This document shows positions 8,263 to 13,751 of a DNA stretch of 37,471 nt, one piece after another (positions within the stretch are counted from its first letter, which is position 1; each line of letters begins with the position of its first letter). This stretch comes from a virus. Lineage: Duplodnaviria; Heunggongvirae; Uroviricota; Caudoviricetes. The stretch lies in IMG/VR virus record IMGVR_UViG_2531839523_000005, one strand, 5' to 3'. The notes under the pieces are model-generated. The model saw only the letters and a list, made by a program, of their open reading frames with translations. It was not told where the DNA came from and searched no databases. The position numbers and the translations under genes are program-made.

Positions 8263-9143
8263 ACACTCCTCGTCAGTATTCTGGCGGCCATTGCACTTAA
8301 TCCCGGAGACATGCGGTTGAATGCTGTTCCGACGGCGTTAAGCTGCCCGGAAACGGTATCCAGAGCACCTGCAATATTTCTTTTGTCCACACCACTCAGC
8401 GCAGACTGTGCCTGCTGTACATACGTGGCTGCTTCGCTGGCTGTTCTGGCCAGACTGATGGCATCGGGCATGGATTCAGAGAGTGCGTTAAACGCCGGAA
8501 CACTTTTCCCCAGAGCCCCGGAGATATTACCCAGTCCGCTCATCAGCCCCGGCACACGGGTCAGTGCGACAACGGGGTTATCCTTCATTTTCTGTGTCAC
8601 CCGAACGGCGCTGATAGTGGTCTGGAGTACAGACTGCGCCTGTTTCGCATAGTTGACGCCGTTGCGGATGAACTGCGCCACCCCGGAAGGTGAAGGAATG
8701 GCACCGGAGACCGCCCCGACACCCGGGAGCTTCGTGCGTATTGCCGGTGGTTGCAGAGGATTTTTCGGGTCACCGGTGTATTCCCGGAGAGACACGGTGG
8801 CACTGACAGCCAGCACGTTGCCGGTACTGTCAGTCTGCTCGCTGGTTGCAGTCACATCGGTAATCACGAACCAGCCGCGATAGTCACCGTTGCCGAAGAC
8901 CAGCGCCAGTGCCTGATGGGCTTTCATGGCTGTTCGCAGTCTCGCCAGCTCCACATCGGGTACACAATAATGCTGATGGAAAACCAGAGTTATCTGGATT
9001 TCGTCCAGCCTGTCGCCGACGAACTGCAGGCCAGGCTTACCCCCGATGCGGGCATGCTCCGCATAATCGACGCCGAACGTGGCCTCGAAGCCGTCCCAGT
9101 AGGTAATCAGCTCAAACTCAATATCACCCAGTACGGCAAACAT
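8259..9143 (-). CDS. Mu N-like tail-associated protein (DNA circularization protein family)
   Basis: 294 aa; immediately downstream of tape measure, 1-bp overlap. Confidence 0.55.
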   Translation of the reverse strand: MFAVLGDIEFELITYWDGFEATFGVDYAEHARIGGKPGLQFVGDRLDEIQITLVFHQHYCVPDVELARLRTAMKAHQALALVFGNGDYRGWFVITDVTATSEQTDSTGNVLAVSATVSLREYTGDPKNPLQPPAIRTKLPGVGAVSGAIPSPSGVAQFIRNGVNYAKQAQSVLQTTISAVRVTQKMKDNPVVALTRVPGLMSGLGNISGALGKSVPAFNALSESMPDAISLARTASEAATYVQQAQSALSGVDKRNIAGALDTVSGQLNAVGTAFNRMSPGLSAMAARILTRSV

Positions 9144-12100
9144 CAGCGGTACTCCTTACGTTGTTTCTGAGCAAGCAGACGCTCCAGCATTTTTTCCAGC
9201 TCATGCAGACTCATATTCAGGGCACCAGTCAGTCCTGCAGGCGCTGTGGTTTCCCTGCCATTGAGGAAAAACTGAGGATTAAAGCTGACCTGGATACCAC
9301 CAGACGTTCCACCGCCGGTTGCAGCTGCACCACGGCCTGAATATCCGGCAGCCAGGATTTCAGGCGAGGGGATACGGGGAACATCCGGTGTCATCTCATT
9401 TGCCAGACGTTGCCCTGGTAAAATCGATGCCCGGGTGGAGAGCGGAATAGCGGGCATGGAAGACAAACTATTGATTACGGCTCCGATCGCATTTTTAGCA
9501 GACGACATAAACCCATTGATATCGGGCAACGGCATACTGAAGCGAACACCTGAAGTGTTATCCCGTATTTCTGGCCCCTGAATGCTCACGGGCATTTTGG
9601 GGAGCAGTTCACTGGCCATTCGCTGCCCGGCCAGAGCTGCAAGCGGAGTGGTCCGCTGCAGGCCAATGGCGGCCCCCTGCGCGATATTGTCACCAAAGCC
9701 CATAAACACGCGGCTCGGCGAATGAATGCCCAGCTTTTCGCTGAACCAGCCACTGATGCTGTTGCCCATTCCGGTTACACTGGATTTGAGCGACTCCCAT
9801 TTGTTTTTGATACCGTTAATCAGACCATCGACAAGATGGCCACCGAAGTCGGTAAACTTTGCCGGCAGATCAACACCAAGATATTTCAGCGCAGCTGCAA
9901 AGGCTTTATAGAGCAGACCTGCCGGCGACCAGTTAATCAGCAGCTTACCAGTTCCCGCGATACCGCCGTTAAAGGCTTCCTGAATGTCAGCCCAGCACTG
10001 TTTAAACCAGCTACTGATGCTGTCACCCATTCCGGTTACACTGGATTTGAGCGACCCCCATTTGTTTTTGATACCGTTAATCAGACCGTCGATAAGATGG
10101 CCACCGAAGTCGGTGAACTTTGCCGGCAGAGTAACGCCGAAATATTTCAGCGCAGCCGCAAAGGCTTTATAGAGCAGGCCTGCCGGCGACCAGTTAATCA
10201 GCAACTTACCAGTTCCCACAATGCCGCCGTTAAAGGCTTCCTGAATGTCAGCCCAGCGCTGTTTAAACCAGCTACTGATGCTGTCACCCATTCCGGTTAC
10301 ACTGGATTTGAGCGACCCCCATTTGCTTTTGATACCGTTAATCAGACCGTCGATAAGATGGCCACCGAAGTCGGTGAACTTTGCCGGCAGAGCAACGCCG
10401 AAATATTTCAGCGCAGCCGCAAAGGCTTTATAGAGCAGGCCTGCCGGCGACCAGTTAATCAGCAACTTACCAGTTCCCACAATGCCGCCGTTAAAGGCTT
10501 CCTGAATGTCAGCCCAGCGCTGTTTAAACCAACCACTGACAGCCCCCCAGTTGCGGTAGATAAGGTAAGCTGCTGCCGCGACAGCGGTGATAACGAGACC
10601 GATGGGATTCATCATCAGCGCTCGCCCAATCCAGAGAACGGCACGTGCAGCGCTCATAAAACCGCGAACGAGGCTGCCCGCCAGAACTTTGCTGAGTTTC
10701 AGTCCTCCGCTGGTCAGTCGGCTGAATCCAGTGACAAGCCAGCGTAATTTGCCACCTTCTCCGAGTGCGGTAGTCAGTCGATGCCAGTTGGTCCGGAGTA
10801 AAACAGCATTTTTCCAGACACTTACAAAGGGGGAAATAAGGAGATTCAGCCCCAGTTTGAGACCAACAGTCGCTATCTTAATCGCAAGGAGCGCACTGAT
10901 GAGCTTAAAAGCCCCACTGACAAATTGCGGGTGAGTCGCTACCCAGTGTTTTGCCCCCTGAATGAGTGGAAGCAGTTCCTGAGTCAAAGAAATAAAAGAT
11001 GGAGCTAATTGATCGCCCAGCGTAATTGCCAGATCGCGACTGCTGACCATAAGTGTTTTAGTGGCTTCAAGGGGAGATTTCAGTCGCTGATCGTAAGCAC
11101 TGGCAAGCAAATCGTTATCCGCAGCCCTGAGAGCACCGGCACGGATCTCTCGATATCTGTCCATGTTGGCCAGCATCGGGCGGATAAATGCCATGACCTG
11201 CATATCCGCGAACATATCACCCAGACCAAAGTTTTTCGCCAGAGCCTGAAGTGCCTCATCTCTTGCCGTATCATTCTTTATTTTCATGGCGGATTTGAAG
11301 CCGGCCAGCGCTTCGGGGCTTTTGGCATTGAGGTAACGTTCTATAACACTCAACATCCCTTCAATCGGAGAGATCCCCGCAGCCTTATAACTCGCAATAG
11401 ATCCCTGCAAATCAATACCCAGATCAGCAAACTGTTTCTGAGTATCGCGGGCAAAAATTTTGGTAAGAAAGTTTTTAAAATTATTGGCTGCTTCGTCGGT
11501 GGAACCTGCACCGATTTTTGCTATCTGGAGACTGGCCCCGATTTCAGCAACAGCCTCTTTTCCACTGGCAATACCCGCCATCATTGGGGCCAGGGACTGC
11601 ATCCACTTGACCTGATCCGGGATTTCAAATGACCCCTGGTCACCGGCATAAGCCATAATATTCTGAACGGCACCAAAATCTCTGGCCGCACCTTTCAGGG
11701 AGTTTTGCCAGACTGCGGCCACTTTTGCCCAGTCCTGAGCAGACGTGCGTGTTGCCGTTGCCGCGCGGGCAATATCCGGCATCAGAAAACCGATATCTGA
11801 CACATTATCAATATTGTCGCTGATGAGTGAACCCACCGCCTCCTGCAGCTCATCCTGATACTGATTGTATTTAAGCGCCCAGCCTTTTATCTGTCCGGCA
11901 AGTGCATCCCGCGTTTTATTGTCATATTTTGCGGTGATCGACATATCAATCATTTTGTCCTGAAAAGACATGGACTGCTGAACGGCAGGGGAAACCGTAT
12001 GATAAACAGTCTGTGCCATGCCATACGCTTCAATCCCCTGACCATACAGCGCCATGCGGTTAGCTTTCAGCGCATCACTGGTAGCGGATGCCGCTGACAG

Positions 12101-12355
12101 ACGGCGCTGCTGGCGCTCAATTTGCTCCATGGTGCGGCTTACCCGCAGCAGCTCGCTGTTGAGATGCTGCATCCGGGAAGAACCCAGTTGACCATAACGT
12201 TCTGTTGCACGGGTTAAAGCGTTCTGACGTTCCTGCAGGCGGCGTGAGGTATCGCTCAGGGAATCAAGCGCACGGCGGGTACCGCTCATTGCAGAACGGA
12301 ATGTGCTGCCAATCATCCCGCCGATAACAACGCCGACTGAAAACTGTCCCGACAT
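9143..12355 (-). CDS. Tail tape measure protein
   Basis: 1070 aa; alpha-helical N-terminus; three tandem 87-aa repeats; GGAGG RBS upstream. Confidence 0.85.
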   Translation of the reverse strand: MSGQFSVGVVIGGMIGSTFRSAMSGTRRALDSLSDTSRRLQERQNALTRATERYGQLGSSRMQHLNSELLRVSRTMEQIERQQRRLSAASATSDALKANRMALYGQGIEAYGMAQTVYHTVSPAVQQSMSFQDKMIDMSITAKYDNKTRDALAGQIKGWALKYNQYQDELQEAVGSLISDNIDNVSDIGFLMPDIARAATATRTSAQDWAKVAAVWQNSLKGAARDFGAVQNIMAYAGDQGSFEIPDQVKWMQSLAPMMAGIASGKEAVAEIGASLQIAKIGAGSTDEAANNFKNFLTKIFARDTQKQFADLGIDLQGSIASYKAAGISPIEGMLSVIERYLNAKSPEALAGFKSAMKIKNDTARDEALQALAKNFGLGDMFADMQVMAFIRPMLANMDRYREIRAGALRAADNDLLASAYDQRLKSPLEATKTLMVSSRDLAITLGDQLAPSFISLTQELLPLIQGAKHWVATHPQFVSGAFKLISALLAIKIATVGLKLGLNLLISPFVSVWKNAVLLRTNWHRLTTALGEGGKLRWLVTGFSRLTSGGLKLSKVLAGSLVRGFMSAARAVLWIGRALMMNPIGLVITAVAAAAYLIYRNWGAVSGWFKQRWADIQEAFNGGIVGTGKLLINWSPAGLLYKAFAAALKYFGVALPAKFTDFGGHLIDGLINGIKSKWGSLKSSVTGMGDSISSWFKQRWADIQEAFNGGIVGTGKLLINWSPAGLLYKAFAAALKYFGVTLPAKFTDFGGHLIDGLINGIKNKWGSLKSSVTGMGDSISSWFKQCWADIQEAFNGGIAGTGKLLINWSPAGLLYKAFAAALKYLGVDLPAKFTDFGGHLVDGLINGIKNKWESLKSSVTGMGNSISGWFSEKLGIHSPSRVFMGFGDNIAQGAAIGLQRTTPLAALAGQRMASELLPKMPVSIQGPEIRDNTSGVRFSMPLPDINGFMSSAKNAIGAVINSLSSMPAIPLSTRASILPGQRLANEMTPDVPRIPSPEILAAGYSGRGAAATGGGTSGGIQVSFNPQFFLNGRETTAPAGLTGALNMSLHELEKMLERLLAQKQRKEYR
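9741..10529. repeat. Three tandem 261-bp coding repeats inside the tape measure gene
   Basis: CTACTGATGCTGTCACCCATTCCGGTTACACTGGATTTGAGCGA recurs with 261-bp period (about 9750, 10011, 10272); produces the look-alike antisense ORFs 9726-9911, 9984-10172, 10245-10433. Confidence 0.85.
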
Positions 12356-12430
12356 AGTGGTTAACCTCCGGGGAAGGTGAAAAGACGTGAGGGGATAACG
12401 CAGAACAGCCGCTACTGGCGGCTGTCTGTA

Positions 12431-12688
12431 CTATGATTTGTCGCCGTACTCGCTTTTGATTTGCTCTTCAGCCTGCTCCAGCCACATCTCCAGATCGTCA
12501 GTATCGAGGGCATCAATCTCCCCCGGCTGAAACCGGAACCATCTCGCCAGCAGCCCCTGCGCCTGCGTCAGCGCCCTGGTTGCTCTCACCCATCCCCGTG
12601 ATGAGCTGAAATCGTTTCTGTAACTGCAGGTAATCAGCCAGATCCATATTGTCGAGATCCTCCGGGAGAAGACCAGTACTGCGGGCAA
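12431..12688 (-). CDS. Possible frameshift extension of the tail assembly chaperone (+1 frame)
   Basis: C-terminal half …QPGEIDALDTDDLEMWLEQAEEQIKSEYGDKS is protein-like; N-terminal half is not; overlaps chaperone ORF by 176 nt. Confidence 0.3.
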   Translation of the reverse strand: MPAVLVFSRRISTIWIWLITCSYRNDFSSSRGWVRATRALTQAQGLLARWFRFQPGEIDALDTDDLEMWLEQAEEQIKSEYGDKS

Positions 12689-12848
12689 TCAGCGGTTCGT
12701 CCCAGTCTGCCGGGTTTTTGCTGATTTTGCGCACCTGCTTCAGGTCTTTTACCGTCAGGCGTTTCAGTTCAACCAGCTCAATTCTGGTGCCTGCAGCAGT
12801 GGTGAAGGGATAAGACAATTTAAAAGTATCGGATGGGGTCTGTGACAT
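12513..12848 (-). CDS. Tail assembly chaperone (Mu gp41-like)
   Basis: 111 aa; immediately upstream of tape measure. Confidence 0.6.
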   Translation of the reverse strand: MSQTPSDTFKLSYPFTTAAGTRIELVELKRLTVKDLKQVRKISKNPADWDEPLIARSTGLLPEDLDNMDLADYLQLQKRFQLITGMGESNQGADAGAGAAGEMVPVSAGGD

Positions 12849-12924
12849 GATTGTGCTCCTGTGTAAGTTCAGGGCAGTATGTCGGGAGAAGCGCGTGACG
12901 GATATTAAAGGAGATTAAGAAGAA

Positions 12925-12938
12925 GGGGCCGGAGCCCC
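12925..12938 (-). terminator. Weak hairpin with U-rich tail downstream of the 93-aa ORF
   Basis: Minus-strand GGGGCUCCGGCCCC followed by UUCUUCUUAAUCUCC. Confidence 0.25.
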
Positions 12939-12945
12939 TGTGATG

Positions 12946-13227
12946 TCAGCAAGTGCGAAACCCCTTGCAGTTACGCAGGAAAGCGATGAGAAGCGTCTTT
13001 CCCTCAGATTTGCCGATGCCGGAGAACCAGTGGTCGGGAGGCTCCCATGCTTCAATCAAATCCGCCAGTTTGCGGGCCTTTGAACGTGTGCAGTCAATCG
13101 GGTCATTGGTTTTACGGGTATTAAAAAGGGTTTCCACCCCCGGAATATCAAGGAGGGTAAACCACGTACCATTTGACATGCCCAGTGCCGCACATCGTCC
13201 TCCTTTATCCGTCAGTTCAACACTCAC
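12946..13227 (-). CDS. Hypothetical protein between tail tube and chaperone genes (possible moron)
   Basis: 93 aa, GTG start 3 bp after tube stop; no recognisable family. Confidence 0.4.
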   Translation of the reverse strand: MSVELTDKGGRCAALGMSNGTWFTLLDIPGVETLFNTRKTNDPIDCTRSKARKLADLIEAWEPPDHWFSGIGKSEGKTLLIAFLRNCKGFRTC

Positions 13228-13229
13228 CG

Positions 13230-13751
13230 TCAGCCCCCGATATTGATACGGTAGTCAGTCAGTTGATCAACACCGCCGACCCGGAAGATGTTGGCCAGAT
13301 AGTCCAGTTGCAGCAGCTCTTCACCATCCAGTACCTGTCTGATATACGTGCAGGTGAAGCTACTGGAGAACTCGGCGTTCTCGTGCTGTTTGAACGTCCC
13401 CAGCGGGTTCTTCTTGAACATAATCGTCAGGAAGGTGACCAGCGGGATTTCGTCAATCAGCCCCTGCGAGCTGTAGCGCTGGACGCTGGAACGACACTGC
13501 AGTGCCAGCGACCTGTACGGGTTCGCGGCAGACAGCATCGCATCGCGGTAAAAGCTGTTCCATTTGATTTCGCCTTCCAGTTTGTCAAAACCAGCCGGGA
13601 GTTCCACCTTACCCACCATCCCCAGCGCCTTGTGTTCCTGCATAATCATGGAGACATCGGGGAGTTTAACTTCCTCAGCCCGTCCCAGCAGGTTAGTACC
13701 ATCCAGATAGATGTTGGCATTCGTGATGCGGTTTATCTCAATCTTTGACAT
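13230..13751 (-). CDS. Tail tube protein (Mu M-like)
   Basis: 173 aa; directly follows sheath gene. Confidence 0.75.
   Translation of the reverse strand: MSKIEINRITNANIYLDGTNLLGRAEEVKLPDVSMIMQEHKALGMVGKVELPAGFDKLEGEIKWNSFYRDAMLSAANPYRSLALQCRSSVQRYSSQGLIDEIPLVTFLTIMFKKNPLGTFKQHENAEFSSSFTCTYIRQVLDGEELLQLDYLANIFRVGGVDQLTDYRINIGG

Follow-up and report, generated by a model that had tools for sequence, protein, structure and literature searches.

A probable +1 frameshift at a conserved UUU_C equips the tail chaperone of BcepMu-like prophages with a P2-type E' domain

Comparison of related tail modules points to a +1 ribosomal frameshift at CGA_UUU_C as the probable source of a long form of the tail chaperone in a BcepMu-like prophage of Escherichia coli. 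The stretch of DNA analysed, referred to here as the window, is IMG/VR virus record IMGVR_UViG_2531839523_000005 (37,471 nt); its element is a BcepMu-like E. coli prophage with a Mu-type head and a P2-type tail, and the genes, sites and hairpins discussed below lie on the minus strand. The chaperone open reading frame (ORF) in frame 0 (12513–12848, 111 aa, stop codon TGA at 12513–12515) is overlapped over 176 nt by a second ORF of 85 codons (12431–12688), and the proposed shift site occupies 12608–12614, 93 nt upstream of the frame-0 stop. Phages differ in the tail chaperone frameshift that they use, which can be -1, -2 or +1 (PMC5009743), and the feature described here is an unannotated instance of this well-known process.

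A preliminary description of the window had proposed a frameshift-extended chaperone from the overlap of the two ORFs, both of which are listed as it gave them, and all of its numbers are accurate. The second ORF starts 160 nt after the first (12848 versus 12688); since 160 mod 3 = 1, it lies in the +1 (equivalently -2) frame, and its stop at 12431 is separated by 75 nt from the start of the tape measure gene at 12355. Only the C-terminal half of the second ORF had been taken for real protein. Its coding character is genuine, but the coding part is larger, as about 70% of the 85 codons are predicted to be translated, from TTC at 12610–12608 to TAG at 12433–12431. This predicted translated part (12431–12610), the E' analogue, reads F SSSRGWVRATRALTQAQGLLARWFRFQPGEIDALDTDDLEMWLEQAEEQIKSEYGDKS.

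The 111-aa ORF is a tail chaperone of family PF10109 (Phage_TAC_7, "E, or 41 or 14"; residues 8–81, E 5.5e-21, 74.8 bits against a cutoff of 25) and also matches phrog_166; the final 52 residues of the 85-codon ORF match phrog_8286 (E 7.9e-34). To place the extension, we compared a profile of +1-frame peptides from 80 unique relatives with the E' sequences of -1-type phages (P2, Pasteurella AFS-2018a and L145), and hhalign related the two with 97.4% probability (E 1.5e-11). A hidden Markov model of the clade scored P2 E' at 19.9 bits and the -2 extension of Mu at 1.0 bit. PF06528 (Phage_P2_GpE) matched residues 100–132 of the predicted fusion at E 0.0015 and 18.4 bits, under its curated 23-bit cutoff, and an NCBIfam search with the fusion and with the extension gave no match. 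After its -1 shift P2 reads ...DVAVIFHWPPSELYPMSLTELITWREKA, and the +1 frame of the window reads ...LLARWFRFQPGEIDALDTDDLEMWLEQAEEQ. The +1-frame segment LLARWFRFQP is conserved and is aligned with VAVIFHWPP in P2 E'; the motif QPGEID is conserved as well, its Gly being encoded in the window by a run of five G (G5). Further upstream, a W[VL] motif follows the Phe in the +1 frame of all clades but Pseudomonas Bise (FSSSRGWV, FRPCLAWL, FWNSWV, FAAWL, FGNWW). Because the extension matches the E' of P2 and not the extension of Mu, we assign the system to the P2-type E/E' pairs and not to the Mu type, despite the Mu-like head. The homolog of E' thus stands in the classic position for a frameshift-extended chaperone, as had been proposed.

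The +1 arrangement is widely conserved. We collected 191 loci that hold a chaperone and an E', drawn from GenBank phages, IMG/VR and GTDB (a single genome per species). E' lies in the +1 frame in 182 of these, corresponding to 129 unique ORFs, in the -1 frame in four and in frame 0 in five. Enterobacterales members of the +1 group come from E. coli, Klebsiella, Salmonella, Pantoea, Mixta, Erwinia, Dickeya and Lonsdalea; the others come from Ralstonia, Pandoraea, Undibacterium, Verminephrobacter, Burkholderia (BcepMu, phiE255) and Pseudomonas (Komp_PAO1_1, Bise). Chaperone identity to the window falls to 29% within the group and is 29–53% between the clades compared. Viable phages share the arrangement (PhiKM, BcepMu, phiE255, Komp_PAO1_1 and Bise), and the region of the window is 100% identical to that of the isolated Escherichia phage PhiKM (PQ738613, genus Bcepmuvirus). 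The prophage itself occurs in 641 of 5426 complete E. coli genomes (~12%), 577 of them at least 99% identical. Retention of the +1 frame in 182 of 191 loci and homology of the extension to P2 E' place the arrangement far beyond chance. The four -1 loci, Pasteurella phage AFS-2018a (L150), Volucribacter (L175), Mannheimia (L177) and L145, all carry the lambda-type heptamer G_GGA_AAG. A single E/E' protein family would therefore use three or more distinct slip sites and both shift directions, with the Pasteurellaceae members shifting -1 on the lambda G/T heptamer.

Comparison of the clades also locates the shift. Within the permitted interval, from the opening of the +1 frame to the frame-0 stop, TTT followed by C occurs in frame once and only once in each of the 129 unique +1 ORFs, and the Phe codon concerned is the homologous one every time. 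TTTC is likewise invariant, among variable neighboring third positions, in 86 unique 130-mers; these were anchored on TTTC, so this is not an independent test. Taken together, the clades confine the shift to 35 nt, from -8 to +27 relative to the first T. The upstream bound comes from Ralstonia-type relatives, all 13 of which have a +1-frame TGA two codons 5' of GAT TTC and a +1 frame open from 8 nt upstream of TTT; the downstream bound comes from some Salmonella-type loci, in which frame 0 closes 8 codons (27 nt) after TTT. Across relatives the frame-0 stop lies +27 to +108 nt past TTT, so that the frame-0 tail has 8 to 35 codons. In the window this tail, residues 81–111 of the chaperone ORF, is of low complexity and its length differs between relatives, as would be expected if it were unimportant. 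The overlap does contain a slippery motif, as the preliminary description had supposed, but not at the G5 run beside the frame-0 stop. In the window it consists of CGA (12614–12612, Arg79), TTT (12611–12609, Phe80) and C (12608).

Patterns of variability agree with this position. Per-site entropy, computed from 93 unique sequences, peaks upstream of the site at the third position of frame-0 codons (1.2–1.6 versus 0.5–0.8 bits). From about +45 nt the maximum moves to frame-0 position 1, the third codon position when read in the +1 frame; the switch occurs somewhere from -15 to +45. All six clade representatives have Phe80, which the -1-type relatives, P2 and Mu do not conserve; invariance only where +1 is used suggests that the shift, and not the protein, is what preserves the codon. 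Even the GC-rich Burkholderia and Ralstonia clades retain TTT, although these genes otherwise use TTC more often for Phe. Of the 129 unique ORFs, 99 have CGA just before TTT, namely those of the E. coli, Salmonella and Ralstonia clades, whereas CGA makes up 2–6% of the Arg codons in the remainder of these genes and 9% in the structural genes of the window. The 0-frame A-site codon after TTT is CAG (69 unique ORFs), CAA (21), CTG (14), CGC (13) or CGG (9), and never a stop. In the BcepMu clade the site reads [T/G]CC_TTT_CGC, with U for T in RNA, and the Pseudomonas site is GTG_TTT_CGG.

These observations suggest a simple mechanism. Most ribosomes would read frame 0 to the TGA at 12515–12513 and yield the 111-aa short form, presumably the major product, and a minority would shift +1 at CGA_UUU_C (12614–12608). 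A single tRNA-Phe species, with anticodon GAA, reads both Phe codons. Peptidyl-tRNA-Phe on UUU, held by a G:U wobble, would re-pair one base downstream on UUC; alternatively, an incoming Phe-tRNA would bind UUC out of frame after the I:A-decoded CGA, which would give the identical protein. The predicted fusion coding sequence, join(12848..12609, 12607..12431) on the minus strand, encodes 138 aa with the junction ...LQKRF/SSSRGW... and would combine the chaperone domain (residues 1–80) with a 58-aa E' domain. If the pair works like its homolog P2 E/E+E' (PMC3091744) and like lambda gpG/gpGT (PMC5009743), the tape measure protein would be coated by both forms, and the E' of the rare long form would recruit tube subunits, giving the right tail length. 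Tail assembly would then need both products at a fixed low ratio, and virions would contain neither.

The preliminary description had left the direction between +1 and -2. Its +1 alternative fits the site, since UUU_C allows cognate re-pairing of tRNA-Phe one base downstream. Its -2 alternative does not, because two bases upstream tRNA-Phe would face GAU (CCU in BcepMu) and find no cognate codon; a -2 shift is not credible, and we infer +1. UUU followed by a pyrimidine is said, from work by Schwartz and Curran in 1997, to be a +1-prone context in E. coli. An in vitro screen also ranks P-site UUU with the codons most prone to shifting (bioRxiv 10.1101/2025.10.02.679949), and in Ty3-type assays in yeast CGA, which is read by I:A wobble, can stimulate a +1 shift when it occupies the P site (PMC5009743). 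CGA may accordingly enhance the shift, a hypothesis only, since other clades do without it. A bolder and rather doubtful proposal is that CGA_UUU_C constitutes a distinct minimal bacterial +1 signal, in which I:A-decoded CGA in the P or E site disturbs the frame and Phe-tRNA reads UUC with no other stimulator, and which would have come under selection in a large group of related proteobacterial prophages, the ancestors of which had moved E' from the -1 to the +1 frame. Such a signal would parallel yeast CGA-dependent +1 shifting (Ty3-type P-site effects, PMC5009743) and the site of influenza A PA-X.

Several points weigh against a +1 ribosomal shift at this site. The loci are phylogenetically related, so their counts are not independent events. 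CGA is not universal, other clades having GTG, TCC, GCC or GCA and one Lelliottia locus CGG, and its role is unproven. CAG and CTG are common codons in E. coli, and the A-site codon (CAG in the window) is neither a stop nor rare, unlike at usual +1 sites. No downstream RNA structure is conserved (consensus -1.76 kcal/mol, z -0.59), and no conserved purine-rich stretch that could act as a Shine-Dalgarno-like element of the prfB type lies 3–10 nt upstream. With the usual +1 stimulators missing at the site, the efficiency of the shift may be low. The fusion product is, in this phage and in the whole clade, a prediction from sequence. Finally, the deposited annotation of BcepMu proposes another slippage, from gp42 to gp43.

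Comparison with characterized systems sets the window closest to P2. P2 gpE/gpE+E' and the window pair share the PF10109 chaperone family, a homologous E', the place between the tube gene (FII in P2) and the tape measure gene (T), and product sizes (142 aa in P2, 138 aa in the window). In both, the shift site falls where the chaperone domain ends on its C-terminal side, the two sites being at most about 4 codons apart in the alignment, and both lack a downstream stimulatory structure (for P2, PMC3091744). P2, however, shifts -1 on the heptamer T_TTT_TTG, whereas the window would shift +1 on CGA_UUU_C and has no U6G. The frame-0 ORF continues for 31 codons beyond the site in the window and for about 6 in P2, and sequence identity is ~21%.

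The resemblance to Mu is more limited. Mu gp41/gp41-42 (Mu_41/Mu_56) and the window pair have the same Pfam label and the same nominal frame (+1 = -2), both elements are transposable with a Mu-like head, and the window has a G5 run. The verified Mu shift is -2 on CGG_GGG_CGA, whereas the conserved UUU_C of the window cannot re-pair at -2; chaperone identity is ~19%, and the extensions have no detectable similarity (1.0 bit). With lambda gpG/gpGT the window shares the logic of a common N-terminus, genes located between the major tail and tape measure genes, and a rare long form (PMC5009743). No sequence similarity to lambda G/T was detected, and the window differs in direction and site from lambda, which shifts -1 at G_GGA_AAG. 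The closest parallel to the site itself is UCC_UUU_CGU of influenza A PA-X, a proven +1 site; like the UUU-pyrimidine sites of E. coli, it works at low efficiency without an RNA structure (PMC3498833). In both cases P-site tRNA-Phe would move from UUU to UUC, and [U/G]CC_UUU_CGC of the BcepMu clade is nearly the PA-X sequence. PA-X, however, depends on an A-site CGU that is rare in its host, whereas the A-site codons of the window clade are common (CAG, CAA, CUG); the upstream CGA is specific to the clade of the window, and the setting here is a bacterial phage. Among SEA-PHAGES genomes (actinophages), 350 forward and 2368 backward tail chaperone frameshifts are annotated (PMC10885494).

An alternative position for the shift, which we consider unlikely, is the G5 run (12520–12524), just 5' of the frame-0 stop in GCC GGG GGA GAT TGA. 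There tRNA-Gly would move -2 (GGA to GGG, giving ...SAGGGEID) or +1 (GGG to GGG, giving ...SAGEID). The context permits perfect re-pairing in either direction, the run is the longest homopolymer in the overlap, and Mu gp41, of the same Pfam family, has its verified -2 shift on CGG GGG CGA (PMC3498833). The run is not followed by CGA as at the Mu site, however, and it is not conserved among relatives: it occurs in only part of the E. coli-type clade and is missing in the Salmonella (CCCAGTGAA), Ralstonia (CCGAGTGAG), BcepMu (CCGTCCGAG) and Pseudomonas clades, where the +1 architecture is the same. The KP12-type relatives, 29 of 54 unique sequences, close frame 0 at GTT TAG before the run is reached. 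The run also lies inside the E' domain, at the Gly of QPGEID, so that a shift there would leave out the conserved LLARWFRFQP, and variability follows the +1 frame already ~45 nt upstream of it. The lack of detectable similarity between the extension and that of Mu likewise argues against a Mu-like shift at G5. A run of four G nearby (GCA GGG GCT, 12556–12553) was rejected as a shift site, as it is lost in L063, L065 and L077–L080.

Separate synthesis of E' from an internal +1-frame start, as a small protein of its own and with no frameshift, is less probable still. A GTG at 12589 is present in the +1 frame and is the choice of gene callers, phrog_8286 members are annotated as stand-alone 54-aa ORFs, and BcepMu gp42 is deposited as a separate coding sequence (CDS). 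The homologous E' of P2, on the other hand, is made solely as a fusion (PMC3091744). Nor is there a start codon at a homologous position across the clades, candidates lying at +43 nt in the window clade (32 of 54), +52 in Salmonella, +37 in BcepMu and +16 in Ralstonia (7 of 13). In the window, Salmonella and BcepMu clades the W[VL] motif of the +1 frame lies upstream of these candidate starts.

Stuttering of RNA polymerase, which would provide the missing or extra base in the transcript, usually needs about 8–9 A or T to be productive. The conserved site has only three T, and G5, the longest run in the overlap, is not conserved. We therefore regard transcriptional slippage as highly improbable here, even though it can replace ribosomal frameshifting in some bacterial genes (PMC5009743, PMC4256274).

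Least credible of all is a sequencing or assembly indel, or a decayed pseudogene, that split a single ORF. The preliminary description had allowed for an indel and had looked to relatives with one continuous ORF as its sign. Such relatives make up only five of the 191 loci, and in each the frame-0 E' results from a single-base indel of its own, no two at the same position, as assembly errors or prophage decay would produce. In-frame 138-aa ORFs do exist in a public protein collection. The commonest, on 242 contigs, corresponds to G5 read as G4 (for example "hypothetical protein" BDY93827.1; proteins P0007–P0011 and P0117), and the junctions of the in-frame ORFs are spread over various short homopolymers. 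Among 633 matching RefSeq complete E. coli genomes, by contrast, 584 matched a 70-nt probe with G5 at 99% or more and have the exact G5 sequence, whereas the same probe with G4 matched none at that level. Because the junctions are scattered and the G4 version is absent from all 633 genomes, the fused ORFs are evidently read or assembly errors, the G4 type being a recurrent homopolymer error that imitates a fused gene, and not a continuous natural gene. Together with the identity to PhiKM and conservation of the +1 arrangement across bacterial orders, these counts dispose of the indel.

The gene order of the tail module, obtained from the ORF listing and profile searches, is sheath, tube, 93-aa ORF, chaperone, tape measure and gpU-like gene, and is of the contractile-tail type. 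Upstream of the chaperone lie the sheath gene (15178–13751), the tail tube gene (13230–13751; PF04985, E 2.9e-53) and, between tube and chaperone, the 93-aa ORF (12946–13227; phrog_1239, E 4.7e-48; DUF7739 sub-threshold). Downstream lie the tape measure gene (9143–12355; PF10145, phrog_28 and phrog_5690) and the gpU-like gene (9143–8259). The 93-aa ORF is missing in BcepMu and in the Salmonella-type elements, and therefore looks like an inserted accessory gene; a terminator-like hairpin follows it at 12924–12939.

A hairpin at 12401–12428 (-18.1 kcal/mol, z -4.4), located 3' of the E' stop and 5' of the tape measure start, has the form ACAGCCGC-CAGTA-GCGGCTGT, and in the alignment its stems (AGCCGC...GCGGCT) are kept in relatives despite sequence changes. 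A terminator scan found the U-tract that follows this hairpin too weak. The hairpin may be a partial terminator or an mRNA stabilizer that sets the ratio of chaperone to tape measure; it lies right after the E' stop and is not part of the shift signal. Within the tape measure gene, at 9744–10539, a 261-nt (87-aa) unit is tandemly repeated in 3.0 copies that are 95% identical. The tape measure of E. coli NZ_CP023844 has 983 aa and that of the window 1070 aa, a difference of exactly one repeat unit, and the PhiKM record has a sequencing gap at the repeat. Variation in copy number would alter the length of the tape measure, and probably of the tail, between strains.

Salmonella elements of ~15 kb (L102–L120, IMG/VR contigs; L006, Salmonella Infantis) apparently comprise mainly the tail module and keep the CGA_TTT_C +1 arrangement intact; the locus tags of L006 correspond to STM4210–STM4215 of LT2. 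This combination suggests that they are tail-only elements, perhaps tailocins, on which selection still acts.

No record inspected, including those of PhiKM and RefSeq, annotates the long chaperone form, and a collection of 15 billion proteins contains neither the fusion predicted for the window nor that predicted for BcepMu. In BcepMu (L004, AY539836, 4603–5364), the deposited gp42 is described as the "Lambda G" analogue and gp43 as its slippage product. Homology identifies gp41 as the PF10109 chaperone and gp42, which lies +1 relative to gp41, as E'; gp43, a GC-rich ORF overlapping the tape measure start, is without support in the present comparison. In RefSeq NZ_CP023844 (L001) the locus tags pass from CRT35_RS04920 to CRT35_RS04910, and RS04915 is skipped exactly at the E' ORF; a gene call there may once have existed and later been withdrawn. 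In the literature we found no described +1 shift in BcepMu-like phages, nor any account of +1 shifting in the P2 E/E' family, of the UUU_C site used or of how widely it occurs; an earlier mention in Xu et al. (2004) is possible.

Related elements are found across Gamma- and Betaproteobacteria, and annotation pipelines would miss in them a probably essential tail gene product and report artificial fused ORFs in noisy assemblies. For research on recoding, CGA_UUU_C would be a natural E. coli +1 site without a stop codon, within a homologous family that also uses -1 (P2, Pasteurellaceae); Mu is a more distant member of the same Pfam family that uses -2, and its extension has no detectable similarity to E'. 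The two-product outcome would thus be conserved while the mechanism is not, and the locus would offer a simple system for probing CGA context.

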